NCBI GenBank assembly: GCA_903861205.1
Contig: CAIOTC010000017.1
Span: 1-42,525, forward strand
DNA from: an uncultured bacterium
Lineage (GTDB): Bacteria > Patescibacteriota > Minisyncoccia > Phycocordibacterales > DATDWN01
DNA length: 42,525 nucleotides
Direction of reading: 5' to 3'
Within the stretch, counting starts at the first letter, position 1. Each line of letters begins with the position of its first letter. Below are positions 3,642-39,524 of this stretch, in pieces. Both the position numbers and the translations under genes were made by a program. The notes below the pieces were generated by a model that was given only the letters and a program-made list of their open reading frames with translations, did not search any database and had not been told where the DNA came from.

Positions 3642-3892
3642 TTCGAGAACTTCGTTGGTCCTCTAGAAGATGTATGTTTTCAACTTTTGACAATCCTGAA
3701 GAAACCAGAGTATTCTATAAAACTCCTTTCTCCGCTTTCCCAAGGCGGTATCTTAGGGAGGGAAAGACCGGAAATGAACGTTGGTCTTTAATCAAACTAT
3801 CACAAATGCAAAATTTTGCAAATGTTAGTCAGAGAGGGGCATCCTCTCGATTCGGGGTTGAGAAGATGCCCCTCTCTGATATAATTATTATC

Positions 3893-11089: not shown

Positions 11090-12601
11090 ATGAACAACTC
11101 AAAAACACTCGGCGGTATTATAAAACAAGCCAGAGAAGAAACCGGTATGACGCAGATTGAATTCGCCAGGAAAATGAAAACGTCTCAGAGCGCCGTGGCG
11201 CGCATCGAAAGAGGCGGGCAAAATCTGACAACCGAAAACGTCCAAAAAATAAGTGAAGCACTCGGCAAAACGCTTTTAAAAGTTGAAAACAAAACCGATG
11301 ATTTTAAAATTGTCGGAGGCAAAAAACTTTCCGGTACGATACAGACCAACACCTCAAAAAACGGCGCGCTCGGACTATTTTGCGCTTCCCTGCTCAACAA
11401 ACAAGCCACGATTCTCCATGGCATTCCGCACATAGAAGAAATCTCCAGAATAATTGAAATTTTTCACAGCATCGGAGTAAAAGTGGAATGGATAAAAGAA
11501 AATTCAGTCAAAATCACTCCTCCACAAAAACTAAAATTGGAATCCCTGAACGCAGATTCGGCCTCAAAAATTCGTTCCGTCATAATGCTTATCGGAGCGG
11601 TCATTCACAAAGAGAAAAAATTTAAAATACCTCATGCGGGTGGGTGCAAAATGGGTGAGCGAACGATTTCCGCCCACAAATATGGACTGGAATCGCTTGG
11701 CGCTGACATAAAAACAAAAGAAAATTTCTACGAAATAACGGTTAAAAAATTAAAACCGAATGACGTCGTCCTCTACGAGGCCAGCGACACCGCTACTGAA
11801 AATTTGCTCATTGCTTCGGCTCTTATCCCCGGAAAAACCACCTTGAGATTTACTCCACCGAACTACCAAGTCCAAGAAGTGTGTTATTTTTTGGAAAAAT
11901 GCGGGGTGAAAATCGAAGGAATCGGCACGAGCACTTTGGTCATTCATGGCATAAATGAAATAAATTCACAAATTGAATATCACAACAGCGAAGACCCGAC
12001 CGAGTCAATGATGTTTATCGCTTCCGCGCTTGTGACGAATTCCAAACTCACAATCACCAGATGCCCGATTGATTTTCTTTCATTGGAAATTTTGAAGTTG
12101 GAAAAAATGGGAATGAAATATAAAAAAAGCAAAGTTTATTTTTCCAAAAACGAAAGGACGCGGCTTTGCGACATAACGATCTTTCCTTCCAAACTTGTGG
12201 CCTTGAAAGACAAAATTCACGCCTCGGCTTATCCGGGCATAAATACGGACAATTTGCCATTTTTCGTCCCAGTCGCTTCGGTGGCCGAGGGAAGCACTCT
12301 CATTCACGACTGGATGTGGGAAAACAGAGCAATATATTTTACCGAATTAAACAGGCTTGGCGCCGACATCACCCTTGCCGATCCGCACAGAGTTTTTGTA
12401 ACCGGACCTAGACAGCTGAAAGGCAACCAGATGGTTTGCCCGCCGGCACTGCGTCCATCCATGATGATTTTGGTGGCCATGCTGGGAGCGAAAGGCGAAT
12501 CGATTTTGCGAAATGTTTATGCCATAAATCGCGGCTACGAAAAAATCGCCGAACGCCTGAACTCCATCGGCGCGGATGTGAAGATAATAAGCGAGATATA
12601 A
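11090..12601 (+). CDS. murA: XRE-type HTH domain fused to UDP-N-acetylglucosamine 1-carboxyvinyltransferase (MurA)
   Basis: Residues 1-65 (GIIKQAREETGMTQIEFARKMKTSQSAVARIERG) form a Cro/C1 HTH. The rest is MurA (KIVGGKKLSGTI, catalytic-Cys loop HAGGCKMGERT). The size is 503 aa. Confidence 0.85.
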   Translation: MNNSKTLGGIIKQAREETGMTQIEFARKMKTSQSAVARIERGGQNLTTENVQKISEALGKTLLKVENKTDDFKIVGGKKLSGTIQTNTSKNGALGLFCASLLNKQATILHGIPHIEEISRIIEIFHSIGVKVEWIKENSVKITPPQKLKLESLNADSASKIRSVIMLIGAVIHKEKKFKIPHAGGCKMGERTISAHKYGLESLGADIKTKENFYEITVKKLKPNDVVLYEASDTATENLLIASALIPGKTTLRFTPPNYQVQEVCYFLEKCGVKIEGIGTSTLVIHGINEINSQIEYHNSEDPTESMMFIASALVTNSKLTITRCPIDFLSLEILKLEKMGMKYKKSKVYFSKNERTRLCDITIFPSKLVALKDKIHASAYPGINTDNLPFFVPVASVAEGSTLIHDWMWENRAIYFTELNRLGADITLADPHRVFVTGPRQLKGNQMVCPPALRPSMMILVAMLGAKGESILRNVYAINRGYEKIAERLNSIGADVKIISEI

Positions 12602-16167: not shown

Positions 16168-16240
16168 GTACAAAAAGAGTACCAAATTTTTCGATTTGAT
16201 ACAACTTTTGTCATAAAGGTTCGACCTTGATGCCCAGTTC

Positions 16241-18925
16241 CTAAGGTCGAACCTTGGAGGAGGAATCCGACACAAAACTCTCAGTCACAAACGAACCACG
16301 ACGGCCTTTTTTGACAGTAAGGATATACTCCTCGCCTTTCATATCCACTGCAATTTCCCCACCTTTGGAAATTCCCTTGCTGACAATGAGCGAGGCAATC
16401 GGCGTCAGAATTTTATTTTGGATCAATCGTCGAAGCGGGCGAGCGCCATACTGCGGATTGTAACCTTCCTTGGCCAAGTGGTCGTAAACCGCTTGCGTCA
16501 ATTCGAGTGTAATTTCTTTTTGAGCCAATCTGTCTTTCACAATATCGATTTGAATTTTGACAATTTCGGCGATAGCTTCCCTGCTCAAAATGTCAAAGAC
16601 GATGATGTCGTCGAGACGGTTCAGAAATTCCGGTCGGAAGTGATCTTTCAGCGCTTCCATCACTTTTGTTTTGGCATCTTCGTAACCGGCCTTTTCATTT
16701 TTGTCGACGGCGAAACCGATTTTTTGCATTTTGTCGATGTACTGCGAGCCGATGTTCGACGTCAAAATGATAACCGTGTTGCGGAAATTGGCCACGCGGC
16801 CTTTCGCGTCCGTCAATCGTCCGTTGTCGAGAACTTGAAGCAAAATGTTGAAAACTTCCGGATGAGCTTTTTCGATTTCGTCGAAAAGAATAACCGAGTA
16901 TGGGCGATGTCGAACAAGCTCCGTCAAATTTCCACCCTCCTCGTAACCGACATAGCCAGCCGGCGCGCCGATCAGTTTCGAGACGGAATGTTTTTCCATG
17001 TATTCGGACATGTCAATTCTGATGAGTGCTTTGTCATCGTCGAACATGAATTGCGCCAGCGCTTTGGTCAGCTCTGTTTTTCCCACGCCAGTCGGACCGA
17101 GGAAAAGGAACGAACCGATCGGACGATTCGGATCGGCCACCCCAGCACGCGAACGTTTAACCGTGTCGGAAATTTTTATGACAGCTTCTTTTTGGCCGAC
17201 AATGCGCTTTTCCAAAACATCTTCCATGCGTGAAAGTTTATCCGCTTCCTCCTCGAGCATTCGCGAGACTGGAATTCCCGTCCATTTTGAAACAATCGAA
17301 GCGATATCGTTTTCGGTCACTTCCTCCTTCAAAATTCTGCGCGAACTTTGCAATTTTTTCAATTTTTTCGATTTTGAATCCAAATCTTTTTCATAAGCGG
17401 GGATTGTGCCATAGCGAATCTCGGCCGCCTTTGACAAATCCACCCGCCCTTCGGCAACATCGGCTTCCCGACGCGCTTCCTCGAGTTGCTTCTTTAAATT
17501 TTTGATGTCGCTGACCGTTTCCTTTTCATTATTCCACTTCAATTCCAACTCGCCTGTTTTTTCTTTCAAATCGGCAATTTCTTTTTCGATTTCTTTGACA
17601 CGAGACTTGGATTTTGAATCGGTTTCTTTTTTGAGTGCCTCGCGTTCGATTTCAAGCTTAACCACTTTCGAATGCGTCTCCTGCAAAATCGGTGGCATAT
17701 TTTCTAGCGCAATTTTCAGATGCGAAGCCGACTCGTCGATCAGGTCGACCGCTTTGTCCGGCAAAAATCTGTCGGCGATATAACGACTTGAAAGGTTGAC
17801 CGCGGACACAATGGCTTCATCGGTGATGCGCACACCGTGGTAGAGCTCATACTTTTCTTTCAGTCCGCGCATAATGGTGATGGCATCGTCGATCGACGGC
17901 TCGTTGACGTAAACAGGCTGAAAGCGACGAGTCAGCGCCGGATCCTTTTCGATATATTTTTGATATTCCTTGAGTGTTGTCGCGCCAATCGCCCGCAGTT
18001 CTCCGCGCGCCAGTGCCGGTTTGAGCATGTTCGAAGCGTCGAGCGAACCCTCCGCTGCGCCGGCTCCGACAATGGTGTGAATTTCATCGACGAACAAAAT
18101 TATTTTGCCGTCGGAACGTTCGATTTCTTTCAAAATATTTTTCAGACGTTCCTCGAACTCCCCGCGATATTTCGTGCCGGCCACCAAAAGTCCGAGGTCA
18201 AGCGAAACGAGTTCCTTGTCTTTGAGCGATTCCGGCACGTCGTGGGTGGACATGCGGATGGCCAAACCCTCGACGATGGCGGTTTTGCCGACACCAGCCT
18301 CACCGATCAGAATCGGATTATTTTTCGTTCGACGAGAAAGAATCTGAATGATGCGCGAAATTTCACTGTCGCGTCCGATGACCGGATCGAGTTTATTCTG
18401 GTGAGCCAAGTGCGTCAGATTGCGAGTGTACTTGGAAAGCGCTTTAAACTTTTTTGGCGCTTCCTGCTCAACACTTTTCGTGCTCTTTATTTCCCCCAAA
18501 CAACGCAAAACAGTTTCCTTGTCGATTTTGAATTTCATCAAAAGGTCGTGCGCCGGGGAAGGCGTTTCGATGGTGGCGATGAAAAGATGTTCCACTCCGA
18601 CAAACTCGTCGCGCATGTCGGAAGCTACTTTTCCGGAAGCTTCGATGACTTGGGCCAGCTCGGGCGTCAAATAAATCTGATACGAAGCAGAAAGTGTTTG
18701 GCCTGTTTCGGTGCCTTCGATGGTGTCGAGAAGCGAATCGGTCAGAAGTATAGTGTCCACCTCGAGACGATCGAGAATCGACGGGACGATCGATTCTTCC
18801 TGCAAAATAAGCGCGGTCAAAAGGTGGAGCGGGCTGACATGATTTTGACCGCGTTCAATAGCCAGCTCGTGAGCTTTGCGAATGGATTCTTTGGCTTTTG
18901 TTGTAAATTTTCCAAATGGAGGCAT
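16241..18925 (-). CDS. clpB: ATP-dependent chaperone ClpB
   Basis: A Clp N domain, two AAA+ modules ([16 protein letters not shown]) and a long coiled-coil middle domain are present. The size is 894 aa. Confidence 0.95.
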
Positions 18926-19430: not shown

Positions 19431-21443
19431 ATGAATAAGAAAACACTTACGGGACCGATATCAATCAATTCCAAGGGAATTGGTTTTTTTGATTTGCCGG
19501 ACAAAAAAGAGGAATCGCTGGAAATTCAGCCTGAGAATTTGGCGCGGGCTTTTCACGGAGATGTCGTTGAAGTCCAAAAGCTTGGTGGTCCTAAACCGAG
19601 AAAAAGTCTTGGTCGGGCGAGAGAAGTCAAAGAGCAAGCCAAAGTGGTCAGAATAATTTCTCGCGCCAAAACTCAATTCGTCGGCATAATCCAAAAAACA
19701 GACGACAAATCATTTTTGATTCCGGATGATAAAAGAATGTACGTGGATATTTTTATTGACCCAAAATCTTTAGCAAGGACAGTCCTTGCTAAAACTGAAA
19801 ACCAGAAAATTCTTGTAGAAATCACCGACTGGCCGGAAACGGAGAAAAATCCGCGCGGAAAAGTTGTTAAAGTCATCGGTACAGCCGGCGAAAACAACAC
19901 CGAGATGGAATCAATCGTTTTGGAAAAAGGTTTCCGAGTCGACTTCCCTGCCGAAGTTTTGGCCGAGGCGGAAAAAATTAAAAATGAATACAAAAGTCAT
20001 TTTGCCGAGGAAGTGAAAAATCGCCGCGACATGCGCGAAACTTTAACCATGACTATCGATCCTGCCGACGCCAAAGATTTTGACGATGCCATTTCTTTTA
20101 AAGAACTTTCCGACGGAACTTTTGAAATCGGCGTGCATATTGCCGACGTGTCATATTTCGTCACGCCCGGCACAGTGCTTGATCGCGAGGCGGAAAAACG
20201 AGGACTGTCAGTTTATCTCGTCGATCGAACTATTCCGATGTTGCCGGAAGTTTTAAGTAATGACCTTTGTTCTCTCAATCCAAACGAGGACAAGTTCACT
20301 TTTTCGGCCGTTTTCAAAATCGACAAAAATGCCAAGATTTTAGACAAATGGTTTGGCCGAACTGTCATTCACAGCGACAAAAGATTTTCATACGAAGACG
20401 CTCAGAAAGTTTTGGACAATGCGAGCTCACCTGGTGTCAACGGCGAAGCAACGTGGTCACCGGGTGTGGGCGCATTGTCCAAACTAAACAACCTCGCAAA
20501 AATTCTGGAGAAGCAAAAATTTGGCGCAGGCGCAATTAATTTTGAAACAGACGAAGTTAAATTCGTTTTGGACGCGGCCGGCAAACCTCTTTCAGTTTAC
20601 AGAAAAACTCGCCTGGACACGCACAAGCTTGTCGAGGAATATATGCTCCTGGCCAATCGCGCGGTCGCCGAACATATTTTCCATTCTCAAAATAACGAGT
20701 CCTTAGCAAGAACTGTTCTTGCTAAAAAACAAAGTGTTTACAGAATTCACGGCAAACCTGATCCGGAACGCATCGAAGCATTGGCGTTTTTTTTGAAAGC
20801 GCTTGGTTTTGATTTGCGAAACGAAAAAGGTTCTGTCACCTCGCGCGACATCAACAAACTGCTCAAGCAGGTGGAAGGCACACCGAACGAAGAACTGATC
20901 AAAACCGCCACCATTCGCAGTATGGCCAAAGCCGTTTACTCGACCAAAAATATCGGGCACTTCGGTCTGGCTTTCAGATTTTACACGCACTTCACCTCGC
21001 CTATTCGCCGATATCCCGATTTGCTGGTGCACAGATTTTTGGAACGCGAAATCGATGGCGGAAAAATTGCTCCAAATGAATACGAGAAATTTGAAAAGTC
21101 ATGCTTGGCACTCTCCGAACTGGAAAAGAAAGCCAGCGACGCAGAAAGAGCCAGCATCAAATACAAGCAGGTTGAATACATGCAATCGCATGTCGGCGAA
21201 ACTTTCCAAGGCACTATCACCGGCGTAACCGACTGGGGAATTTACATCGAGGAAAAAATTACCAAATGCGAAGGCATGGCAAAACTACGCGACCTGAATG
21301 ACGACTATTATGTCCTCGACGAAAAAAATTACACAATCCGCGGCCAGCGCACCGGCAAAAAATACACACTTGGTGATTCTGTCACATTCAAAGTTGTGGC
21401 GGCAGACATGGAGAAAAGAGTTTTGGATTACCAGATTTTGTAA
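19431..21443 (+). CDS. rnr: Ribonuclease R (RNB family 3'-5' exoribonuclease)
   Basis: The RNB core (TIDPADAKDFDDAIS, VYLVDRTIPMLP, FTSPIRRYPDLLVHR) and a C-terminal S1 domain are present. The size is 670 aa. Confidence 0.9.
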   Translation: MNKKTLTGPISINSKGIGFFDLPDKKEESLEIQPENLARAFHGDVVEVQKLGGPKPRKSLGRAREVKEQAKVVRIISRAKTQFVGIIQKTDDKSFLIPDDKRMYVDIFIDPKSLARTVLAKTENQKILVEITDWPETEKNPRGKVVKVIGTAGENNTEMESIVLEKGFRVDFPAEVLAEAEKIKNEYKSHFAEEVKNRRDMRETLTMTIDPADAKDFDDAISFKELSDGTFEIGVHIADVSYFVTPGTVLDREAEKRGLSVYLVDRTIPMLPEVLSNDLCSLNPNEDKFTFSAVFKIDKNAKILDKWFGRTVIHSDKRFSYEDAQKVLDNASSPGVNGEATWSPGVGALSKLNNLAKILEKQKFGAGAINFETDEVKFVLDAAGKPLSVYRKTRLDTHKLVEEYMLLANRAVAEHIFHSQNNESLARTVLAKKQSVYRIHGKPDPERIEALAFFLKALGFDLRNEKGSVTSRDINKLLKQVEGTPNEELIKTATIRSMAKAVYSTKNIGHFGLAFRFYTHFTSPIRRYPDLLVHRFLEREIDGGKIAPNEYEKFEKSCLALSELEKKASDAERASIKYKQVEYMQSHVGETFQGTITGVTDWGIYIEEKITKCEGMAKLRDLNDDYYVLDEKNYTIRGQRTGKKYTLGDSVTFKVVAADMEKRVLDYQIL

Positions 21444-21467: not shown

Positions 21468-21508
21468 AATCCTCCGGCTTCGCCACCTCCTTTAAGAAAG
21501 GAGGAATT
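21468..21508 (+). repeat. 42-nt two-hairpin unit (family U), forward orientation
   Basis: The unit reads aatcctcc-ggcttcgcc-a-cctccttt-aag-aaaggagg-aatt. Confidence 0.8.
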
Positions 21509-21516
21509 GATGCATT

Positions 21517-21946
21517 AATCTCCCTTTTTTAAAGGGAGTGGCCGAAGGCCGAGGGATTTTTAGTGCATTCCACAATTTTTCTTACACAACTCTCTAAATT
21601 AGTTTTTATATCAATATCTCTGAATCTAATTATTTTGACTCCAGCATTCTTTAAAATCTCATCTCTCACCTCATCATTTTCTATTTTTGCATCATGACTA
21701 ATGCCGTCAATTTCAATTGCAAGATTTAATTTTGAACAATAAAAATCAACTATGTAGTTGTTGATAGGTCTCTGTCTCAAAAATTGGCAACCTAATTTTT
21801 TATCTTTTATTTCTTTCCATAGCAATACTTCAGATAATGTTGATTCGTTCCGTAACTTTTTGGAAAATTTTTTTAGATTTTTATTGTAAATGAGTTTCAT
21901 AAAATCCCTCCCCGCTTCGCGGTACTCCCTTTAAGAAAGGGAGATT
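21517..21946 (-). mobile_element. Candidate compact element: a DUF559 endonuclease gene bounded by inverted family-U units (21517-21558 and 21903-21946)
   Basis: The left end is aatctcccttttttaaagggagtggccgaaggccgagggatt. The reverse complement of the right end is aatctccctttcttaaagggagtaccgcgaagcggggagggatt. The unit pair at 29077-29172 shows the same two-end arrangement with only 12 nt between the ends. Confidence 0.5.
21529..21900 (-). CDS. DUF559 / Vsr-like (PD-(D/E)xK) endonuclease domain protein
   Basis: LLWKEIKDKKLGCQFLRQRPINNYIVDFYCSKLNLAIEIDGISHD...IIRF is the DUF559 pattern. The last 9 codons (NPSAFGHSL*) are encoded by the flanking repeat unit. Confidence 0.8.
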   Translation of the reverse strand: MKLIYNKNLKKFSKKLRNESTLSEVLLWKEIKDKKLGCQFLRQRPINNYIVDFYCSKLNLAIEIDGISHDAKIENDEVRDEILKNAGVKIIRFRDIDIKTNLESCVRKIVECTKNPSAFGHSL

Positions 21947-21956
21947 TGAATGCGGG

Positions 21957-24254
21957 TTATTTCGCCACGGCAACGGCTTGATCAAATGCGACCGAGAGAA
22001 GTTTCGAGCCACCACCGAGACCCATGGTTACGCCGTACAAAATCCCCGCACGGGACATTGTTTCGCGGTTGTGGGTAATGACAATGAGTTGCGAACGTTT
22101 GGAAAGATTTTCCACCATATCGCCATACTTTTTGGAATTGGCTTCGTCGAGAGCGGCGTCTGTTTCGTCTAGAATAATAAACGGCGGAGGATTGACTTGA
22201 GAGATGGCAAAAAGCAAAGCGATGGAAGTCAGTGCCCTCTCCCCGCCGGAAAGCATCATCAAACCTTTCACTTTCTTTTTCGGTAACACAACATCGATAT
22301 CAATCCCATCCTCACTTTCCGCTCCGGTTTCTTCAATGGCAAGGGCAGCCCTTGCCATTTCATCACCGTCTTCATTTTCAAATAGGTCATCAATTTCTTT
22401 TTTCTTGCGTTTTGGCGCGGAAATAACGGACAAGCTGGCCTCACCACCACCGAACATCAGAGCAAAATATTCTTTGAACTGCTGGTTGATTTTTTCCACG
22501 CCGGTTTTGAATTCGTTGGAAAGTCGTTCATCCAAATCTTTTATGAGATCTGTCAGCGAATCGGCCGAACCGGAAAGGTCAGTCAGCTCTTTTGCCAGAA
22601 ACTCATCTCGCTCCGAGGCATCAGTGTATTCTTTCATTACATCGGCCCCACCGATTCCGCCGGCATCTTCCAAACGAATTTTTATTTTTTCGATTGTTCG
22701 TCTGCGTTCTTCCTGATTTGCGCGTGGTTCGTCAAAATCAAAAACAAGCGACTCAAATTGCAAAACAGCCGTGCCAAGCATCATTCCAAGCTCTGTTAAT
22801 TCCCTATTGAAATCCTCTTTGACTATTCGCAAAGTTTCCTCCTCCGACTGCAAGCTGTGAATTTGCGATCTGACTTCCTGCTCCTCCGCCATGATTCTGA
22901 AAACCGCTTTTTCGGCGTCGCGATTGGTATCTTTTTCCGTGTTTATTTTTTCCTGTAAAGCCGAATACTCGCGGGACAATTTCGCTTCGTTTGCAATAAC
23001 ATCACCCGCTTCACTGGCAGCAATTTCCTTTTTTCTCCTCAAATCCGCCAAATCTTTTTGGGCTTCAACCAAAAGCGACGTATCCACCTTGTCTTTATTA
23101 CTTTCAATAAAATCTGACAAAAGTTTTCCAATTTCATCAATTTTCCTTATCAAAATATCCACTTTCTCCTGGTCCCAGGTGTCACCTGGGACCAGTTTTT
23201 TGGAATCGGAAATTATTTGTTCTATTTCTTTTTGAACAACTTCGACAGAAACAAGCGTGACTGTTTTGTGCAAATATGAGTTGGCCAGTTCCTCCTGCTT
23301 TTTTATCATTCGGGCCAAGGAGGTTATCTCACCGTCCAGTTCGCCGGACTGACGTAAAAGCTCGTCTTTCTTTTTTCGCGTTTCGTGAAGTTCCCTCTCG
23401 AGTGAAATCAGTTCGTCCGACATGACATCGCGATGTTGTGCGCCTTCCAAAATTTTCTTGGCTTCGGAGAGTTCCTCTTGCAACTTTTTTTCCTGTTTTT
23501 CCAGCGGATGTTTTTTGCCGGAAATATTTTTCTCAATGCGCTTTATATATTCGTCCTCGCGTTTGCAATACTCCAGCGCTTTATCCTGCAAATCTTTTTT
23601 CATTTCAAGCGTCTTCTCCACTTTTTCCACCTGCTTTTTGAGGAATTTGATATGCGGCAAAATTTCTCGTCGAAGAGATTCCACTTGTGCAATATTTTCA
23701 CGAGTTTTCAAAAGTTTTTTCTCACTTTCCTGTTTTTTGTATTGATAAAGTTTCAAACCGAGCGCATCCTCAATCATGGCTTTGCGTTCTTTGATGCTGG
23801 CATTCAAAATTCTGTCCGCTTCGCCCTGCGAAATAATGTGATGTCCGGACGAACCGATATGCGCCGAATGCAAAAGTTCCAACACATCTCGCAAACAAAC
23901 TTGCGAACCGTTGATGGAATACTCGTTGACACCGTCGCGATGCACAACACGTTCAATGATCACCTCCTCGAAATCCACAGGTAGAAATTTGGATTTGTTG
24001 TCGAAAATTATTTTGACGCTTGCCCGATTCGCTCTAGGCAAATCCCCCGCGCCGTTAAAAATCAAATCTTCGCCTTTTTTGCCACGCAGGGATTTGATCG
24101 ACTGCTCGCCAAGAACAAAAGAAAACGCCTCGGCCACATTGGACTTGCCCGAACCATTCGGCCCAACCACCGCAGTAACATTCGAAGTGAAAAGTAATTC
24201 GCTCTTTTTGGCGAAACTTTTGAATCCGGTGAGTTCAATAGATTTCAGATACAT
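21957..24254 (-). CDS. smc: SMC-family chromosome segregation ATPase, short form (765 aa)
   Basis: The Walker A head (VVGPNGSGKSN), long coiled coil, signature motif LSGGERALT and Walker B FIILDETDAALD are present. I could not recognise a canonical hinge. Confidence 0.8.
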   Translation of the reverse strand: MYLKSIELTGFKSFAKKSELLFTSNVTAVVGPNGSGKSNVAEAFSFVLGEQSIKSLRGKKGEDLIFNGAGDLPRANRASVKIIFDNKSKFLPVDFEEVIIERVVHRDGVNEYSINGSQVCLRDVLELLHSAHIGSSGHHIISQGEADRILNASIKERKAMIEDALGLKLYQYKKQESEKKLLKTRENIAQVESLRREILPHIKFLKKQVEKVEKTLEMKKDLQDKALEYCKREDEYIKRIEKNISGKKHPLEKQEKKLQEELSEAKKILEGAQHRDVMSDELISLERELHETRKKKDELLRQSGELDGEITSLARMIKKQEELANSYLHKTVTLVSVEVVQKEIEQIISDSKKLVPGDTWDQEKVDILIRKIDEIGKLLSDFIESNKDKVDTSLLVEAQKDLADLRRKKEIAASEAGDVIANEAKLSREYSALQEKINTEKDTNRDAEKAVFRIMAEEQEVRSQIHSLQSEEETLRIVKEDFNRELTELGMMLGTAVLQFESLVFDFDEPRANQEERRRTIEKIKIRLEDAGGIGGADVMKEYTDASERDEFLAKELTDLSGSADSLTDLIKDLDERLSNEFKTGVEKINQQFKEYFALMFGGGEASLSVISAPKRKKKEIDDLFENEDGDEMARAALAIEETGAESEDGIDIDVVLPKKKVKGLMMLSGGERALTSIALLFAISQVNPPPFIILDETDAALDEANSKKYGDMVENLSKRSQLIVITHNRETMSRAGILYGVTMGLGGGSKLLSVAFDQAVAVAK

Positions 24255-27579: not shown

Positions 27580-27876
27580 TTAGGCATGGGCGCTATGGGT
27601 ATTTTTGCCATCGGTCATTTTCCACAAATAAGCTAGAAACGGTTTCTGGCATTGAAAACATTCCTTGCCAGCTTCTTCGATGTGAGCCTCAAACCCCGGA
27701 TATTTATCCGGATAACCACAATATCTTCTGAACAACTCCCTGCCCTCGACGCACATTTTGCTTCTGACTGTCGATAAGCCGGATGAGTTACTCCCACCGA
27801 CCAAAAGAAAACGAAACTGCGACATCCTTGTTCTGTACTCGGAATCATTTCTCAAAGAAATAACATGAGCAGACAT
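27580..27876 (-). CDS. Hypothetical Cys-containing protein (98 aa). Start moved to MSAHVISL behind the RBS GGAGGG.
   Basis: The RBS cggagggctttATG is present. The sequence contains C..x..C and CFQC motifs. I recognised no family. Confidence 0.5.
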   Translation of the reverse strand: MSAHVISLRNDSEYRTRMSQFRFLLVGGSNSSGLSTVRSKMCVEGRELFRRYCGYPDKYPGFEAHIEEAGKECFQCQKPFLAYLWKMTDGKNTHSAHA

Positions 27877-28010
27877 AAAGCCCTCCGATTTAAGAATACG
27901 CTTCATAAATAGCAAAAACAATTTACTTGTGGATAAATCCACACACTAATTTTGCCATCGCTTCACCGTGTTTTTAAAAAAAACACAATGGCAAATTTAG
28001 TGTGCGGATA

Positions 28011-28047
28011 AATATAAAAGCGCCAGTGATTTGAAACCACAGGCGCC
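28011..28047 (-). terminator. Terminator after the 78-aa hypothetical gene
   Basis: The minus strand reads ggcgcc-tgtggtttcaaatcact-ggcgc followed by ttttat. Confidence 0.5.
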
Positions 28048-28076
28048 TGATGAGAGCTAAATTACAACTAGCTGAA

Positions 28077-28313
28077 TCAGCTACAGAGAAAAGTTACAAA
28101 AACATCTCGACACTTTTTACAATGCACGGCATGGTGGGGAAATCCTCGATTCGCCTGCGGATTCTCGCAGTAGGAAAGGTACAACACTCTCCCTTCCTCA
28201 CAAAAACCTGCGGATTCTGCCGATGTTCTCTCTTCCAGATCCCGGTAGAGAAAGAACTCCCTCAACTTGCGCGCGATTTTGTCTAGAGTTGGTTGTGGTT
28301 GCAGTCCAGTCAT
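28077..28313 (-). CDS. Hypothetical Cys/His-rich small protein (78 aa)
   Basis: The RBS AAGGAGG lies 5 nt upstream of the ATG. The C-terminal part reads C..x12..C...HH.VHCKKC. I recognised no family. Confidence 0.55.
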   Translation of the reverse strand: MTGLQPQPTLDKIARKLREFFLYRDLEERTSAESAGFCEEGRVLYLSYCENPQANRGFPHHAVHCKKCRDVFVTFLCS

Positions 28314-28355
28314 GTATAGCCTCCTTTTTCAGAGTACAGAATTGAACAACAAAAG

Positions 28356-29048
28356 TCAAACCAGGTTTTTGCAAAAAGATTTGCGATGAAAAAGGGAGAG
28401 ACCGTGAGTTTGAATGGCAGTGCGATGCGCGAGCGTGCCATAACCTTTGTGAATATGAAAATTGTAAAGCGGATATTTTTTGCTCGCTTTGCACATTAGT
28501 TTGTCACGCGAAACTTTTGCCAAAATCGACGCCCAGGCGATAATTTTTTCTTTTTCGTCGCCTTTTATAATAGTAAATTGTTTTACTTGTTTAACAGAAT
28601 ATCCGTTTGTAAGTTCAGCTGGAACTTTTAATCCCCCATCTAATAAAATTTTTAATTTAAAATTTTTAATTTTTAAATAATTTTTAATGTCTAAATTTCC
28701 AAAACCTTTTGCAATGGCTTTTTTGATGCATTTGGAAATTCCGATTTTGTCGATTTCTTTGTTTGAGATATGAACAATTTGAGCTTGCAGAAGGGCACCT
28801 TCTGCAGAATTCGTGCAGAAGGTGCCCTTCTGCAACTGTTCCAAGACTTTTGCATACTTCTCGCGAGATTCCGGAGAAAGTTTTTTGCTGTCTTTGCCGA
28901 GTGGTGGCAAACGCCCCGCCACACCGGCGGGCAAGTTGTTTCGCTTCAGTTTGGCGTACAATTTTTCCTCACACATCACAATCCCCACCGTCACAGGCCC
29001 TGCCAATGGTCCCCTCCCAACTTCGTCAATGCCGATAATGTAGTTCAT
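28356..29048 (-). CDS. rnhB: Ribonuclease HII. Start moved to MNYIIGIDEVGRGPLAGPV.
   Basis: GIDEVGRGPLAGPV, DSKKLS and ASILAKVSRD are RNase HII motifs. The gene carries a 51-nt double hairpin and an AT-rich in-frame block. Confidence 0.9.
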   Translation of the reverse strand: MNYIIGIDEVGRGPLAGPVTVGIVMCEEKLYAKLKRNNLPAGVAGRLPPLGKDSKKLSPESREKYAKVLEQLQKGTFCTNSAEGALLQAQIVHISNKEIDKIGISKCIKKAIAKGFGNLDIKNYLKIKNFKLKILLDGGLKVPAELTNGYSVKQVKQFTIIKGDEKEKIIAWASILAKVSRDKLMCKASKKYPLYNFHIHKGYGTLAHRTAIQTHGLSLFHRKSFCKNLV

Positions 29049-29076
29049 AAAAATAGAGTTTACGCATTTGTGCACC

Positions 29077-29172
29077 ATTCTCCCTTTCATAAAGGGAGTG
29101 GCCGAAGGCCGAGGGATTTTTTGATTTCAAAATCCTCCGCCCTGCGGGCACCTCCTTTAAGAAAGGAGGATT
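29077..29172. repeat. Gene-less pair of family-U units (reverse then forward orientation, 12-nt spacer)
   Basis: The sequence is attctccctttcataaagggagtggccgaaggccgagggatt - ttttgatttcaa - aatcctccgccctgcgggcacctcctttaagaaaggaggatt. Confidence 0.8.
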
Positions 29173-29248
29173 AATGCGTGAGCTATTAAAGAATATCTTA
29201 TCACAAAAATAAAAGCCCCGGCGTTTCCGCGCGGGACTGTACAACTTT

Positions 29249-29659
29249 TTATTTAATCTGATCAATAATAGAAAAAACTTCTCCTTCACCATCGTAACTT
29301 CTTTTACTACCCCTGACACCTACACGTGCGACTTCTCTCAATAATTTGTGTCCTTCTACCGAAAAAGTCACGGCAATCGATTGAGTTTCCCAGTCCTTAT
29401 GAGCAGGATCATATGACACATATACACCGAATGTCTGATTATCTTTCAGATAATCCCATAATCCAATTCTTCCGCCTTTCACATTGTATAACTCAAATGC
29501 CTGACGGATTGCCAATTTTACAGCGGCGTTTTCCGTTTTTAAATTGATAACTTCACTTTTCTTGTTGGTGACCTCAACGTCTTTTTTTATCAAGACTCCT
29601 ACTACCAGCAAATTTGTGATTATCATAGTAAGAACCAGAGCAGCGACTGTTTTACTCAT
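29249..29659 (-). CDS. Hypothetical membrane-anchored protein (136 aa, N-terminal TM helix)
   Basis: AALVLTMIITNLLVVGVLI forms the TM helix. I recognised no family. Confidence 0.5.
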   Translation of the reverse strand: MSKTVAALVLTMIITNLLVVGVLIKKDVEVTNKKSEVINLKTENAAVKLAIRQAFELYNVKGGRIGLWDYLKDNQTFGVYVSYDPAHKDWETQSIAVTFSVEGHKLLREVARVGVRGSKRSYDGEGEVFSIIDQIK

Positions 29660-29750
29660 TCAAAGGAGCTCCTATCTCCACAAGATAATATATATTATTG
29701 TTATACTTTGTCAAGCGAGCGGAAAAGTGAAAATTTGGTACAATGTTGGC

Positions 29751-32700
29751 ATGTCAAAGTTTATCCACTTACATACTCACAGTCATTACAGCTTGCTCAA
29801 TGCCCTGCCGAAACTCGACGAGCTGGTCAAGACTGCCAAGAAGATGGGAATGGCTTCGCTGGCTTTGACCGACAACGGCAATCTGTACGGCGCCATTGAG
29901 TTTTACAAGGAATGCCAGAAACACGAGGTCAAGCCGATCATTGGCGTCGACGCTTATGTCGCCTACCGTTCGCGAAATGACAAACAAGCCGGCATCGACA
30001 AGGAACGCTATCGACTAGTCCTACTGGCCGAAAACGAAACCGGTTACAAAAATTTGATCCAACTCGTCACCATTTCCCACCTGGAAGGTTTTTATTACAA
30101 ACCGCGTGTGGACAAAGAAATTTTGGAAAAATATCACGAGGGACTGATCGCTATCGCACCGTCATTTTCGAACGACATTTCACAATCGCTGGAAACGATG
30201 CATGTGGAGCAGGCGATGGAGCGACTGGAGTGGTACAAGAAAGTCTTTAACAAAAAATCCAACAAGGGGGACCCTTGTGGTTCAGGATTACAAGGGTCCC
30301 CCTTGTTGGACCAAAGTCAGACCTCGGGGAACTTCTTCATTGAAATCACCCACCATCCTGAAATAAAAGGTCACGAGGAAAAAATGAAAAAACTTTTGGA
30401 CTTCGCTAGGCAAACGAACACACCGATTGTGGCGGCGCATGATGTCTATTATATGAATCCCGAGGACCGAGCCGCTCGCGAGACACTCATGGCTGTCATG
30501 AACAACGGCGACATATCCGACAAGTTGGACGAAAAAACGGACGACTTTTCATTCATTTCGCCGGAAACTGCCGAAAAATATTTCAAAAATTTGCCTGACG
30601 CGCTTGAAAACACCGAAAAAATCGCCGAGAGATGCAACTTGAAACTCGAACTGGGCAAATGGGTTTTCCCGAATTACATTTTGGATAGCGGACTTTCATA
30701 TGACGAGGAACTTCGCAAGGAAGCGCTGGCCGGTTTCGAAAAACGCGGGCTTTCGCAAACAGCCGAGGAAATGGAGCGCATGGAGTATGAATTGAAAGTG
30801 ATCAAGGACAAAGGTTACTCGCCATACTTTTTGGTGGTGGCGGACCTGCTTCGCTTTTCGGAAGAAAATGGAATTTTCACAAACATCAGAGGTTCGGTGG
30901 CCGGCTCTCTCGTCACCTACCTGACCGGCGTCACCAAAGTCAATCCACTGGTTTACAAAATTCCGTTTGAAAGATTTCTCAACCCAGAGCGTCCGTCGGC
31001 GCCCGACATCGACATGGACTACGCCGACAACCGTCGCGACGAGGTGATTGATTACGCTCGTCGAAAATACGGCGTGAACAACGTTGCCCAAATCGGTACG
31101 TTCGGTACGATGGCCGCCCGCGGATCCGTGCGCGACGTCACTCGCGCCATGGGTTTTGCCTACTCGCTCGGAGACTCGATTGCCAAACTGATTCCGATGG
31201 GCGCGCAGGGATTTCCCATGACCATCGACCGCGCTCTCAAAGAAGTGCCGGAGTTGAAAGAATTGTACAAAACTCAGGCCGATGTCAAAAAAATAATCGA
31301 CATGGCCAAAAAAATCGAGGGTTGTGCCCGCCACATCTCGGTGCACGCTGCCGGCGTAGTTATTTCGCCCACAACGCTGACCGATTTCGTTCCGCTTCAG
31401 TACGATACCAAAGGCGACAACAAAATCATCACACAGTACGACATGCACGCCGTCGAGGACGCCGGGCTTTTGAAGTTTGACTTTCTCGGCATCAGAAACC
31501 TTTCCATTTTGGCCGACGCCGTTCATCGCGTCGAAGCGATTGAAGGCAAAAAAATCGACATCGAACAAATTCCGCTCGACGACAAAAAAACTTTCGACAT
31601 GCTCACTCGTGGAGAAACGATCGGACTTTTCCAGCTCAACGGCGACGGTATGACGAGATGGTTGAAAGAACTCAAACCGACAACCATTTTCGATATCAAC
31701 GCCATGGTCGCTTTGTACCGACCCGGCCCGATGGAGTGCATTCCGCAATACATCGAGCGCAAACATGATCCGAAAAAAATAAAATTTCTTGATCCGCGAA
31801 TGAAAACGATTTTGGATCAATCATTCGGCGTCATCACTTACCAGGACGACGTGCTCATGTGCGCCATCAAACTCGGCGGATATTCCTGGCTCGAAGCCGA
31901 CAAACTGCGTAAAGCCATGGGCAAGAAAATTCCGGCTGTTATGCAGGCCGAGAAAGAAAAACTTCTGGCCGGACTTTTGAAAAATGGAATGTCGCCAGAA
32001 AAAGCGGACGAGCTGTGGAAGTTGATTGAGCCGTTTGCCGCCTACGGTTTCGGCAAAGCGCACGCCGCCAGCTATGGACGCGTGGCTTACCAAACTTCGT
32101 ACATGAAAGCCAACTTCCCTGCTATATATATGTCAGCCGTTCTGACTGCCGAGTCGGGCGACGTGGAAAAAGTGGCCGAAATCATTGGAGAGTGCAAGCG
32201 TATGAAAATTCCCGTTTTACCACCGGATATAAATCAGTCGTTCGGCGGGTTCAGTGTGGTGAAAGGCAAAAAAAGGGTGCCCCTTTTAAATCCTGACGAA
32301 AAGGGGCACCCTTTTTCTGATTCCGAATCAGACAAAATCAGATTTGGATTGACCACCATTAAAAATTTCGGTGAGGGAATCGGCGCGTCGATTATTGCCG
32401 AAAGAAAAGCGAACGGCGAATTCAAATCGCTTTCCGATTTTCTGCGCCGGATCAAAGATAAAAACTTGAACAAAAAATCGCTCGAGTCGCTCATCAAAGC
32501 CGGCGCGATGGATCGGTTCGGCGAACGCGCCACGCTTCTTTACAACTTGGAAACGTTGCTCGCCTTCAACAAAGAAGAACGAGCCAAGGAAACGGACCAG
32601 ACTTCCCTTTTCGGACTTTTGTCGGAGCCGGAAAAAGCGAGCGAAATTCATTTGGAAAAAGCACCGGTTTCAAATCCGGCCGATGCTTTGTTGTGGGAAA

Positions 32701-33056
32701 AGGAACTGCTCGGCCTGTACATTTCCGGCCATCCGCTGGACAGTTTCCGCCACAAATTGGAAGGTCGCGAAATGACTGTTAAAAAATTGAAGGAAACGGC
32801 CAAAGAAAAACAGATGGTCGTCCTCGGCGGAATCATCGAGGAAATCCGGCCAGTCATGACCAAAAAGGGCGACAAAATGATTTTTCTCAAAATGGCCGAC
32901 TTGTCCGACTCGATCGAAGCCGTCATTTTTCCGAAAACTTTTGAGGAGTTTCAAGACATTCTCGTGCCCGAAAGTTGTATCGTTGTCAAAGGCACTTTCT
33001 CCACGCGCAATGGCGGAATGTCGATCGTCGTCGACAAAGTCAAACAAATGGAATAA
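29751..33056 (+). CDS. dnaE: DNA polymerase III alpha subunit. Start moved to MSKFIHLHTHSHYS.
   Basis: The PHP domain (HLHTHSHYSLL), the polymerase core (PDIDMDY, YRPGPME, FGKAHAASY) and an OB fold are present. The size is 1101 aa, with two in-frame double hairpins. Confidence 0.95.
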   Translation: MSKFIHLHTHSHYSLLNALPKLDELVKTAKKMGMASLALTDNGNLYGAIEFYKECQKHEVKPIIGVDAYVAYRSRNDKQAGIDKERYRLVLLAENETGYKNLIQLVTISHLEGFYYKPRVDKEILEKYHEGLIAIAPSFSNDISQSLETMHVEQAMERLEWYKKVFNKKSNKGDPCGSGLQGSPLLDQSQTSGNFFIEITHHPEIKGHEEKMKKLLDFARQTNTPIVAAHDVYYMNPEDRAARETLMAVMNNGDISDKLDEKTDDFSFISPETAEKYFKNLPDALENTEKIAERCNLKLELGKWVFPNYILDSGLSYDEELRKEALAGFEKRGLSQTAEEMERMEYELKVIKDKGYSPYFLVVADLLRFSEENGIFTNIRGSVAGSLVTYLTGVTKVNPLVYKIPFERFLNPERPSAPDIDMDYADNRRDEVIDYARRKYGVNNVAQIGTFGTMAARGSVRDVTRAMGFAYSLGDSIAKLIPMGAQGFPMTIDRALKEVPELKELYKTQADVKKIIDMAKKIEGCARHISVHAAGVVISPTTLTDFVPLQYDTKGDNKIITQYDMHAVEDAGLLKFDFLGIRNLSILADAVHRVEAIEGKKIDIEQIPLDDKKTFDMLTRGETIGLFQLNGDGMTRWLKELKPTTIFDINAMVALYRPGPMECIPQYIERKHDPKKIKFLDPRMKTILDQSFGVITYQDDVLMCAIKLGGYSWLEADKLRKAMGKKIPAVMQAEKEKLLAGLLKNGMSPEKADELWKLIEPFAAYGFGKAHAASYGRVAYQTSYMKANFPAIYMSAVLTAESGDVEKVAEIIGECKRMKIPVLPPDINQSFGGFSVVKGKKRVPLLNPDEKGHPFSDSESDKIRFGLTTIKNFGEGIGASIIAERKANGEFKSLSDFLRRIKDKNLNKKSLESLIKAGAMDRFGERATLLYNLETLLAFNKEERAKETDQTSLFGLLSEPEKASEIHLEKAPVSNPADALLWEKELLGLYISGHPLDSFRHKLEGREMTVKKLKETAKEKQMVVLGGIIEEIRPVMTKKGDKMIFLKMADLSDSIEAVIFPKTFEEFQDILVPESCIVVKGTFSTRNGGMSIVVDKVKQME

Positions 33057-33060
33057 TGAC

Positions 33061-33219
33061 GCAAATCTCAATTTCGCATTCCTTTCCAGAGTAACCTCAA
33101 AAACTCCTGCGAGTTTTTGAGGCTGATCCTCGGCCAAAACTTGTCAAGATGGAATGCCTTGACAAGACCATGCTTTTGGCCTGCGGAGCCTCCGGAAAGG
33201 AATGCAAAATGAGATTTGC
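33061..33219. repeat. Family L element copy 6
   Basis: The outer arms are gcaaatctcaatttcgcattcctttccagag / ctccggaaaggaatgcaaaatgagatttgc. The core has tcctcggcc...cttgtcaag...cttgacaag...catgcttttggcctgcggagcctcc, parallel to copies 5 and 8. TAGTGGTGA follows. Confidence 0.8.
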
Positions 33220-33285
33220 TAGTGGTGATGGAAAAAATGCAGGATTAGGAATAAAATTAGACTATTAATAAATAATTATAAAATC

Positions 33286-33534
33286 ATGGATATAAAAAGT
33301 TTGGAGTCGGATATTAGACGAGAGCAACAAGATATTGAAAAGGAGGAAAGTAATTTAGAAAAAGAGAAAAGTGATTTGGAGAAAGCGAAGATGGAAGTTC
33401 AGAAAATTGAAGCAAAAATAAAAGAAATCGAAGCAAAAATTGCCAAAATGAAGGAGGAGATGAGCAAAAATAGTTCTGATTTGCAAAGACTGGCCAGTGC
33501 GACGGCAAGTTCAGCCGGTGATAAGAAAAAATAA
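33286..33534 (+). CDS. Hypothetical coiled-coil protein (82 aa, E/K-rich)
   Basis: Heptad-like EKEESNLEKEKSDLEKAKMEVQKIEAKIKEIEAKIAKMKEE is present. I recognised no family. Confidence 0.45.
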   Translation: MDIKSLESDIRREQQDIEKEESNLEKEKSDLEKAKMEVQKIEAKIKEIEAKIAKMKEEMSKNSSDLQRLASATASSAGDKKK

Positions 33535-33584
33535 TTCACGGCTTGAAATAAAATAGCTCCTGTGCTAGTGTTATGAGCATATGA

Positions 33585-34032: not shown

Positions 34033-34136
34033 TTTTTCAAGTATCAATTTCCAATTTCCAATGAATTTCTCAATGAACCAATTGTCCAATTGAAGAATTG
34101 GAAAATTCATTGGAAATTGGAAATTGGAAATTTTTA
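34033..34136. repeat. Family W hairpin copy 3 (between rpsU and ybeY)
   Basis: The arms are caatttccaatttccaatgaattt / aaattcattggaaattggaaattgg. The centre is ctcaatgaaccaattgtccaattgaagaattgg. Confidence 0.8.
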
Positions 34137-34523: not shown

Positions 34524-34620
34524 CAATTTCCAATTTCCAATAAATGAATCAATTTTTCAATTGAACAATTGGTTCATTGGAAAATTCATTGAAAATTGGA
34601 AATTGGTCATTGAAAATTTC
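34512..34620. repeat. Family W hairpin copy 4 (between ybeY and ftsA; approximately the reverse complement of copy 2)
   Basis: The sequence is aaattttcaagtaacaatttccaatttccaataaatgaatc...gattcattgaaaattggaaattggtcattgaaaattt. Its centre is the reverse complement of the copy 2 and 3 centres. Confidence 0.8.
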
Positions 34621-37951: not shown

Positions 37952-38184
37952 AAAAATTTCTTAAAACATTACCTTTTCGGAGACGAAAGCCCGTCCAGCG
38001 ACGGGCTTTCTCTGTCCTCGGCCTCGATTTGTCAATGAGCCCCTCTCCAGTTTTAAGGTCTGGCCTTGGGAAATTGGCTGTTTAAGGCCAGACCTTTGGA
38101 ATCCAAAACTGGGGAGGGGTCGTTGACAAAACCATGCTCGAGGCCTGCGGATGCTCCGAAAAGGTAATGTTTTAAGAAATTTTT
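37952..38184. repeat. Family L element copy 8 (long form) carrying a nested double hairpin at its apex (38047-38112)
   Basis: Perfect 24-nt outer arms are aaaaatttcttaaaacattacctt / aaggtaatgttttaagaaattttt. The core is collinear with the reverse complement of copy 5. TAGTGGTGA follows. Confidence 0.85.
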
Positions 38185-38496: not shown

Positions 38497-39426
38497 ATGA
38501 ATCAATCTTTCGACTTAATCATTATCGGTGGCGGACCTGCTGGAGTGAGTGCGGGGGTTTATGCGGCGCGGAAGAGATTGAAAACTTTGCTGGTTACGGC
38601 GGATTTTGGAGGGCAATCGATCGTTTCGGACAGCATAGAAAACTGGATTGGCACGCCAAAAATTTCGGGCAAAGAGCTGGCCGAAAATTTGAAAAAACAC
38701 CTCCTTTCCTACGCCGGTGACATCGTCGAAATACACGAAGCAGAATTCGTCAGAGACATTGCCAAATCAGACGGCAATTTTTCCGTTACAACTGACAAGG
38801 GCGTTTACGAAACAAAATCAATTCTCGTCGCCACCGGTAGCGGCCGACGCAAACTGGAAATTCCCGGCGCCAGCGAGTTCGACAACAAAGGTGTCACCTA
38901 TTGCGCTTCGTGCGACGGTCCGCTTTTTGCGGGACAGGACGTGGTAGTTATCGGTGGAGGCAATGCCGCTCTCGAGTCGGCCGCCCAGCTTTTGGCATAT
39001 TGCAAATCAGTTACTTTGCTCAATCGCTCAGAAAAATTGAAAGGCGATGAAATTACCATCGAAAAACTTTTGCAAAATCCGAAATTCAAAATTATTAAAA
39101 ACGCCGCGCCGACCGAGATCAGGGGCGATAAGTTCGTTACCGGCATTGTTTATGAGGACACTTTGACCGGAGAAAAACACGAAATCGCCGCGCCGGGAAT
39201 TTTCGTCGAGATCGGCCTAGTGCCAGCCACCATGTTCGCCAAAAATATTTTAGAGCTCAACAAAATCGGCCAAATCCCCGTCGATCCGAAAAATCAACAA
39301 ACCGCCGTCCCCGGAATTTGGGCTGCCGGAGACTGCACCGACGCTCTCTATCACCAAAACAACATCGCCTCCGGCGACGCCGTGCGAGCTCTTGAGGACA
39401 TCTACTTGTGGCTGAAAACGAAGTAA
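38497..39426 (+). CDS. trxB: Thioredoxin-disulfide reductase
   Basis: FAD motif IIIGGGPAGVSAG, redox-active CASCDG, NADPH motif VIGGGNAALE and GIWAAGDC are present. The size is 309 aa. Confidence 0.9.
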   Translation: MNQSFDLIIIGGGPAGVSAGVYAARKRLKTLLVTADFGGQSIVSDSIENWIGTPKISGKELAENLKKHLLSYAGDIVEIHEAEFVRDIAKSDGNFSVTTDKGVYETKSILVATGSGRRKLEIPGASEFDNKGVTYCASCDGPLFAGQDVVVIGGGNAALESAAQLLAYCKSVTLLNRSEKLKGDEITIEKLLQNPKFKIIKNAAPTEIRGDKFVTGIVYEDTLTGEKHEIAAPGIFVEIGLVPATMFAKNILELNKIGQIPVDPKNQQTAVPGIWAAGDCTDALYHQNNIASGDAVRALEDIYLWLKTK

Positions 39427-39510
39427 ATCCTCCGCCCTGCGGGCACCTCCTTTAGGAAAGGAGGATTAAATCTCCCTTTTTTAAAGGGAGTGGCCGAAGG
39501 CCGAGGGATT
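39426..39510. repeat. Gene-less pair of family-U units (forward then reverse, directly abutting)
   Basis: The sequence is aatcctccgccctgcgggcacctcctttaggaaaggaggatt-a-aatctcccttttttaaagggagtggccgaaggccgagggatt. It starts on the trxB stop codon. Confidence 0.8.
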
Positions 39511-39524
39511 TATTTTTACATTCT

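Follow-up and report, generated by a model that had tools for sequence, protein, structure and literature searches.

Two palindromic elements in the dnaE gene of a Patescibacteria genome as probable members of a dispersed family of selfish repeats

Rickettsia palindromic elements (RPEs) are repeats that lie in frame within unrelated housekeeping genes of a reduced genome, where they add a peptide at positions compatible with the fold of the host protein (PMC10969869). Repetitive extragenic palindromes (REPs) and REPINs, as two reports describe them, consist of a short palindromic unit that occurs singly or in inverted doublets folding into one long hairpin, with many copies per genome (PMC3116915, PMC3733652). 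Mitochondrial double-hairpin elements, GC clusters and hairpin-forming repeats are portrayed in a further report as tiny sequences that spread in compact genomes and occasionally occupy rRNA or protein genes at length-variable sites (PMC2800124). Here we analyze 42,525 nucleotides from an uncultured, ultra-small Patescibacteria bacterium (GenBank assembly GCA_903861205.1, contig CAIOTC010000017.1; this whole stretch is the window), in which the dnaE gene for DNA polymerase III alpha carries two palindromic elements, element 1 (E7) and element 2 (E8). We consider it probable that each is a copy of a palindromic repeat, REP/REPIN-like as well as RPE-like, that is small, non-autonomous and selfish, is widespread in Patescibacteria and persists where the host protein can tolerate it. 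The literature searched yielded no description of such elements in Patescibacteria, although absence there is not proof.

Element 2 comprises 53 bases in the order CAAAAAAAGGGTGCCCCTTTT / AAATCCTGACG / AAAAGGGGCACCCTTTTTCTG, with 21-nt arms that are complementary at 20 of 21 positions on either side of an 11-nt spacer. A preliminary description of this DNA had called the arms exact reverse complements, which is correct for the 18-nt arms it quoted, the extension to 21 nt introducing one mismatch. Either arm has a 5-bp stem of its own, closed by a 3-nt loop: AAGGG-TGC-CCCTT in one and AAGGG-GCA-CCCTT in the other. The label double hairpin, given to the element at the same time, is apt in that each arm has a small hairpin of its own, but the predicted minimum-energy fold of elements 1 and 2, on either strand and as DNA or RNA, is one long hairpin, so that the two small hairpins would represent an alternative conformation. 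DNA folding gave −20.2 kcal/mol (z = −5.7) for element 2 and −26.1 kcal/mol (z = −7.2) for element 1; the corresponding RNA values are −30.1 and −46.1 kcal/mol. Translation confirmed that element 2 leaves the frame intact and encodes KKRVPLLNPDEKGHPFS within DnaE, immediately ahead of the conserved IRFGL. Element 1 has arms complementary at all 21 positions around an 11-nt spacer, GGTTCAGGATT, and encodes SNKGDPCGSGLQGSPLL, likewise in frame.

The two dnaE spacers are related in opposite orientations. In reverse complement the spacer of element 2 reads CGTCAGGATTT and has the 8-mer TCAGGATT in common with that of element 1, and the chance that two random 11-mers of the window share an 8-mer on either strand is 1.2e-3. 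The loop match proposed earlier accordingly extends over 8 of the 11 bases, with a 1-nt shift relative to the arms, and not over the whole loop. None of the five other TCAGGATT sites in the window is located in an element.

To place these elements in a wider context, we used a covariance model (R1) built from 23 elements of other Patescibacteria genomes only, with the long-hairpin structure given and no window sequence included; the window was searched with filters off, and bits were recorded on both strands. R1 matches ten window sites, both dnaE elements and eight more (Table 1), as well as many Patescibacteria loci, and the E-values for the window copies range from 1e-8 to 1e-13. A model free of window sequence thus recovers both dnaE elements, as expected if they are diverged copies of one family, which is what the preliminary description had proposed. 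It had also placed them in opposite orientations. Because the arms are symmetric, orientation is set by the central spacer alone, and R1 scores element 1 higher on the minus strand and element 2, whose spacer is in sense orientation relative to the model, higher on the plus strand. These margins are small (3.6 and 5.6 bits, respectively), but the opposite strands agree with the 8-mer shared in reverse complement.

Further copies in the window were located by a scan for inverted repeats with arms that are themselves hairpins. About ten family copies are present, as doublets and as single hairpins, and the clear ones have a fixed geometry of a 13-nt hairpin, about 15 nt and a second 13-nt hairpin. 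This geometry (13+15+13) is seen even in the probable degenerate copy in dprA, in which the stems are mutated to GAGGG/CCCTC. Nine of the 11 locations fall inside coding sequence, one covers the clpB stop codon and one is intergenic; the window otherwise holds ordinary core genes. The paired-hairpin pattern AAGGGNNNCCCTT-N(8-20)-AAGGGNNNCCCTT was observed three times in the window with none expected, and AAGGNNNNNCCTT 13 times against 0.74 expected, all 13 within elements, three of which are the single hairpins of topA, the RNase R gene and the SMC-like gene. The spacers of E1 and E9 match at 11 of 15 positions. A protein look-up for RNase HII, the host of E6, matched exactly the 230-aa form that begins at an internal start, and not the 244-aa open reading frame (ORF).

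Table 1. Positions of the family copies and related features, with scores of covariance model R1 (window coordinates unless a locus is named)
Feature	Context	Position	Strand	R1 match	R1 bits (+) / (−)	Remark
E1	dihydrouridine synthase (Dus) gene (gene on minus strand)	403-457	+	402-458	46.9 / 44.1	
E2	second element of Dus gene	802-850	-	801-851	17.8 / 28.8	
E3	dprA	3829-3879		3826-3882	14.0 / 14.4	probable degenerate copy; E 0.04
Single hairpin	topA	5420-5448		5420-5448	17.5 / 18.7	CCCCAAGGTG-A-CACCTTGGGG
E4	overlaps stop codon and 3' end of clpB	16216-16255	-	16208-16263	29.6 / 33.3	
Single hairpin	RNase R gene	19767-19795			10.7	TTAGCAAGGAC-A-GTCCTTGCTAA; weak by model
Single hairpin	SMC-like gene	22333-22361		22333-22361	18.3 / 18.8	ATGGCAAGGG-CAG-CCCTTGCCAT
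E6	RNase HII gene	28785-28835	+	28783-28837	24.5 / 20.7	arms 22/22 complementary
dnaE	DNA polymerase III alpha, 1102 aa	29748-33056	+			host of elements 1 and 2
E7 (element 1)	dnaE, loop of PHP domain	30258-30310	-	30256-30312	39.5 / 43.1	E 6e-12
E8 (element 2)	dnaE	32267-32319	+	32265-32321	33.6 / 28.0	nested palindrome; E 1e-8
E8 arms	dnaE	32267-32287, 32299-32319				21 nt each
E8 spacer	dnaE	32288-32298				11 nt
E8 small hairpins	dnaE	32273-32285, 32301-32313				
E9	intergenic, downstream of ftsZ	38055-38096	-	38047-38104	29.6 / 40.0	nested in longer 15-bp stem spanning 38040-38119
RNase HII loop insertion	L121	8990-9115				
RNase HII loop insertion	L122	8975-9050				
RNase HII loop insertion	L001	8711-8765				
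RNase HII loop insertion	window	28785-28835				E6
Doublet with perfect DnaA box	SMAG_U3062, L020	3694-3737				
Doublet with perfect DnaA box	SMAG_U3062, L020	4404-4447				
Doublet with perfect DnaA box	SMAG_U3062, L060	3127-3169				

Syntenic DNA of related genomes is poorer in such sequences. R1 found no copy in about 95 kb from six related genomes and one marginal match in a seventh, and AAGGN5CCTT occurs 13 times in the 42.5-kb window versus nine times in 118 kb of syntenic relatives. This roughly fourfold higher density points to an expansion in the lineage of the window.

With 1102 residues the dnaE product is longer than typical DnaE orthologues (1060–1075 aa); its ORF covers PHP, polymerase, finger, helix-hairpin-helix and OB domains, and its named homologues belong to Parcubacteria, Paceibacterota and Zambryskibacteria. 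Across 118 aligned homologues, both insertion sites are hypervariable in length and the closest relatives (79–82% identity; P0002, P0003, P0005) are without both segments, which, with the frame kept in both, bears out the earlier suggestion that the elements are in-frame insertions. Compared with the solved Thermus aquaticus protein, element 1 lies in a PHP-domain linker of 31 residues that has 6 in Thermus, and element 2 just ahead of a conserved strand and the helix-hairpin-helix region, at a one-residue turn between Thermus residues 883 and 885 that is occupied by 23 residues in the window protein. Judged from these alignments, both dnaE elements are insertions in hypervariable surface loops. 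Hairpins are present at the same sites in other genomes: site 1 of L121 and L122 holds two hairpins whose stems read CACTTGG...CCAAGTG; site 2 of L123 and L124 is occupied by an AAGG(G)...(C)CCTT hairpin, after which comes one of CCGACCC-AGA-GGGTCGG, and site 2 of L001 by a 36-residue insertion containing TGCAGAAG...CTTCTGCA. Some related DnaE proteins of about 1530 aa (P0066, P0108) contain intein domains (PF14528, PF14890), which makes dnaE a recurrent host of other selfish insertions too.

Beyond the window and its relatives, a pattern scan covered one genome per species, and the matches listed represent a lower bound. The Patescibacteria among them comprise Parcubacteria, Paceibacterota, Zambryskibacteria, Nomurabacteria, Lloydbacteria and Saccharibacteria. 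In 59 of the 65 pairs at Patescibacteria loci among the matches listed, the second hairpin is at most one mismatch away from the exact reverse complement of the first; the loops prove inversion in 34 of these 59, the other 25 being near-palindromic and equally compatible with an inverted or a direct arrangement. In the family core, which measures about 41 nt, a 13–17-nt asymmetric spacer separates two inverted AAGG(G)-NNN-(C)CCTT hairpins, and outer stems usually bring the element to 49–57 nt. A spacer motif of approximately RAAGAATTTTGCCCC, itself asymmetric, is common to many elements at unrelated loci in different genomes. Hosts elsewhere include the genes for BipA, an ABC ATPase, the NAD-dependent DNA ligase LigA, a UvrD/AddA-type helicase-nuclease, MetRS, a class-V aminotransferase (two copies), UvrC, PurH and an RsmI-type methylase. 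The 49-nt cores in BipA (L008/L056) and in the ABC ATPase (L016), unrelated genes of different genomes, are identical at 45 of 49 positions, and these copies encode nearly the same peptide. Across the family both orientations and all three codon phases were seen; the encoded peptides are rich in Gly, Pro, Lys and Leu and vary with phase (KGNPLGQ..., RVPLL..., QGSPL...), and the reading frame is kept at every intragenic copy examined. In Lloydbacteria, family elements are clustered in intergenic spacers, as in the L099 clusters. The family is scattered over unrelated genes and genomes, its copies vary in presence among orthologues, and they take the form of doublets or of single hairpins.

Several other hairpin repeats were also noted. 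Tandem head-to-tail arrays of AAGGG-NNN-CCCTT with a period of 28–30 nt occur in Patescibacteria MAG143 (L061, L069, L073, L115) and in Saccharibacteria (L072), and their arrangement differs from that of the isolated inverted doublets. In Candidatus Paceibacterota SMAG_U3062, the spacer between paired GTAAGGGGACCCCTTAC hairpins contains a perfect DnaA box, TTATCCACA; two contigs together carry at least three such copies (Table 1), and variants on two further contigs (L026, L078) have a one-mismatch DnaA box or a box in the flank. In Amycolatopsis xylanica, GTGACAAGGGCGGCCCTTGTCAC-type doublets are abundant over many contigs (L005 and about 35 other loci among the matches listed); they are an unrelated REPIN-like family that matches the pattern by convergence. 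The Amycolatopsis matches, together with those in Desulfovibrio and Salimicrobium, were set aside as unrelated palindromic repeat families.

A striking property of the family is that, after insertion, both arms evolve in concert, with changes matched between them. Nine arm positions are variable, namely six bases of the outer stem and the three of the hairpin loop. There, window copies are 25% identical to one another, the random value, whereas within a copy eight or nine of the nine are complementary in the five intragenic doublets. Between the window and L001, the RNase HII element shows eight arm substitutions, all compensated: one stem pair is changed at all four of its occurrences, and both loops have become new complementary triplets. 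The site-1 hairpins of DnaE in L121 and L122 likewise differ by C-G to T-A in one and by AT/AT to GC/GC in the other, and the BipA copies of L008 and L056 have identical arms, their sole two changes lying in the spacer. In the 23-element alignment the covariation score is 0.372 versus 0.129 when shuffled, a value reached by none of 500 shuffles and lower in every slid register, and one-sided changes of the G-U type are almost absent. As the seeds were picked for near-perfect complementarity, the covariation figure leans toward structure; the orthologue comparisons are free of that bias. From the strict Watson-Crick match in both the long and the small hairpins we infer that a DNA-level process fits better than selection on an RNA fold.

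The RNase HII gene is informative in a second respect, as its palindrome (51 nt) is longer than the net insertion of 13 codons. An excess of this kind suggests that flanking host codons are drawn into the stem after insertion, a reading made uncertain by the hypervariability of the loops. The element is missing in L002 and L003. Hairpin insertions of differing sequence occupy this loop in four of eight related genomes (Table 1), with four extra residues in L123 and L124, which suggests either that the loop is a hot spot or that a single ancient element has drifted there through concerted change.

Taken as copies of a selfish repeat, the elements could have spread and persisted as follows. An enzyme supplied in trans would recognize the small hairpins in single-stranded DNA, in the way that REP-associated tyrosine transposases (RAYTs) do for REP/REPIN. 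A copy that landed in a coding region would survive only if it added whole codons, brought in no stop codon and struck a loop tolerant of extra residues, which would account for the location of the dnaE copies in the PHP linker and, ahead of the helix-hairpin-helix region, at a beta-turn tip. It would then be translated as a Gly/Pro/Lys-rich loop of about 17 residues, and the concerted change of its arms may take place in the DNA itself, through hairpin-templated copying (quasi-palindrome template switching) or through repair in an extruded hairpin.

Several observations weigh against this interpretation. The window contains no transposase gene, and among 148 ORFs beside elements in other genomes no transposase domain recurs in the 25 commonest families listed. 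One ORF flanked by element clusters in L099 was considered as a transposase and rejected, being regulator-like, with a C-terminal helix-turn-helix by sequence and no obvious transposase features. A target-site duplication could not be seen: E1, E7 and E8 are not flanked by direct repeats, their exact boundaries being uncertain, and the DNA of the close relatives (about 80% protein identity) has diverged too far for an empty site to fix the insertion boundaries. Conservation is confined to about 8 nt of the arms and a loose spacer motif, unusually little for a transposable element. Finally, although the loop match exceeds chance and further copies of the family exist, the exact dnaE spacer was not found elsewhere. 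A metagenome scan for it between AGGG...CCCT hairpins returned one match, a high-GC, non-palindromic chance one, so that this spacer sub-type is known from the present organism alone.

A more radical, and in our judgment doubtful, version of the selfish repeat would make the elements self-perfecting hairpin replicators. Only the loop-closing AAGG/CCTT pairs and the spacer would be specified, and the second arm would be copied from the first, either at insertion or by continual hairpin-templated conversion that recruits flanking host codons. Such replicators would be a major, hitherto unrecognized source of the lineage-specific insertions in essential Patescibacteria proteins.

Among the alternatives, we weighed a local origin, in which the palindromes are immobile and form on the spot, through replication template switching or fold-back synthesis that starts at short AAGG/CCTT seeds, and later perfect themselves. 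It would explain why outer stems and loops, although complementary inside a copy, vary from one copy to the next and why the RNase HII palindrome exceeds its net insertion, it agrees with the lack of a transposase noted above, and in L124 host K-G codons (AAG GGA) do form part of the hairpin. We nevertheless hold it to be unlikely: the asymmetric RAAGAATTTTGCCCC-like spacer motif turns up repeatedly at unrelated loci of different genomes, BipA and the ABC ATPase have near-identical 49-nt cores, both dnaE spacers have an 8-mer in common, and a model from other genomes matches the window copies with E-values down to 1e-13.

That the hairpins are selected cis-elements in mRNA or DNA, such as RNase III sites, translation pauses, protein-binding sites or replication signals, seems quite improbable to us. 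The compensated substitutions in orthologous copies are of the kind expected from a functional structure, the predicted RNA stems are perfect over 21–25 bp (−30 to −46 kcal/mol, z −5 to −9), an RNase III gene is present in the window, and the related family of SMAG_U3062 has its DnaA box. Presence and absence, however, differ among close orthologues, position is not conserved, and the copies are scattered over unrelated genes in both orientations and all phases. The near absence of G-U intermediates favors a constraint on DNA over one on RNA, and the elements match no Rfam family: only tRNAs reach the gathering score in the window, the elements giving sub-threshold matches to generic hairpin (microRNA precursor) models.

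Retention of the 17-residue loops for a role in the proteins is very improbable. The insertions are in frame and Gly/Pro-rich like surface loops, and two unrelated hosts, BipA and the ABC ATPase, received near-identical peptides, but a single DNA unit yields unrelated peptides according to its phase (all three occur) and orientation (both occur), copies lie outside genes too, and it is the nucleotide palindrome and not the amino acids that is conserved. An assembly or amplification artefact, for example a chimeric inverted duplication, has a negligible chance of being correct even though some library or assembly errors can produce short perfect palindromes, as L129, assembled independently from another sample, shows 100% identity with the window over 27588–29949 and 30030–33542, stretches that cover both dnaE elements and the RNase HII element, orthologous elements exist in unrelated public genomes, and the frame is preserved at each intragenic copy examined. 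The sole difference between L129 and the window, an apparent 70-nt indel, was rejected as such, being a run of N at a scaffold gap. The same population is represented in ENA samples ERZ18625396, ERZ27313102 and ERZ18626762, and its other assemblies (L125–L129) are fragmented into contigs of 1.6–5.9 kb.

The window contains other repeats as well. A second, unrelated intergenic family occupies three sites (21489–21561, 29079–29174 and 39425–39515) with several short hairpins (CTCCCTTT...AAAGGGAG, GGCCGAAGGCC, CCTCCTTTAAGAAAGGAGG), the last of which pairs a Shine-Dalgarno-like AGGAGG with its complement directly before ATG. In the RNase R gene, a 73-nt imperfect palindrome with 32-nt arms (20411–20483; 81% complementary) gives no R1 match and may be a different or decayed element. 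An AT-rich near-perfect palindrome with 40-nt arms (85%) and CAATTGGAAATTG-like repeats (34045–34126 and 34531–34586) sits in a stretch of about 1.5 kb (33.1–34.6 kb) that has no convincing gene. An inverted repeat with 33-nt arms at 27926–28020 carries a perfect DnaA box TTATCCACA (minus strand, 27928–27936) and a one-mismatch copy (28003–28011); DnaA-box-like 9-mers number 15 in the window against 8.3 expected. Lastly, the MurA ORF (EPSP_synthase family; 11090–12601) begins with an HTH_3 helix-turn-helix at residues 11–62, so that either the fusion is an unusual one or an upstream ORF has been misjoined.

The genomes of Patescibacteria are tiny and leave hardly any space between genes, and their conserved proteins contain many unexplained lineage-specific insertions. 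If the selfish-repeat interpretation is correct, palindromes of 41–57 nt landing in essential genes (those for the replicative polymerase, RNase HII, BipA, DNA ligase and tRNA synthetases) would explain part of this variation, keeping the frame for long periods as their arms co-evolve, and the family would provide a natural marker for those loops of essential enzymes that are permissive. Hairpin-templated mutation would have a clean natural system in the arm changes, which are strictly Watson-Crick and coordinated four-fold. On the practical side, such palindromes probably disrupt assembly from short reads and make the proteins of metagenome-assembled genomes look more diverged than they are. 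The Rickettsia phenomenon would, moreover, extend to a second, very large group of reduced-genome bacteria.

Of the known systems considered, two were discarded. TIGR arrays, raised since candidate phyla radiation (CPR) bacteria carry them and since the shared 8-mer contains CUGA, were rejected on architecture: the copies are isolated and intragenic, the 11-nt loop has CUGA but no box C, and the window contains no Nop-domain gene. DNA uptake sequences were dropped because they accumulate by substitution and not as 40–50-nt insertions. [quoted passage not shown] The mitochondrial hairpin repeats offer an analogy, as tiny hairpin-forming repeats in compact genomes, although they are organellar and unrelated in sequence.

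The remaining two systems come nearer. Like REPINs, the elements have arms complementary at 20–21 of 21 positions, each with a 5–7-bp hairpin, single-unit forms exist alongside the doublets, and clusters fill intergenic spacers in some genomes, L099 among them. They differ in that the family alignment has no conserved GTAG/CGTC tag (CGTC occurs in the spacer of element 2 only), that REPs are extragenic whereas most window copies are intragenic, and that the arms are copy-specific and not close to a master sequence. In REPIN systems a RAYT (Y1 HUH transposase) is encoded by a single-copy gene that the repeats typically flank; no such gene was seen in the window or in the recurrent families beside elements. 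With RPEs the elements share in-frame insertion into unrelated protein genes. RPEs, however, are of about 100–150 bp, form defined sequence families and encode a conserved peptide, whereas the elements described here measure 41–57 nt, are conserved in short stems and a spacer motif only, and encode peptides that vary with phase and orientation; they belong to another host phylum and have no apparent sequence relationship to RPEs, to which they were not aligned directly. By analogy, then, the closest functional parallel is with the Rickettsia palindromic elements, and the closest architecture is that of REP/REPIN.

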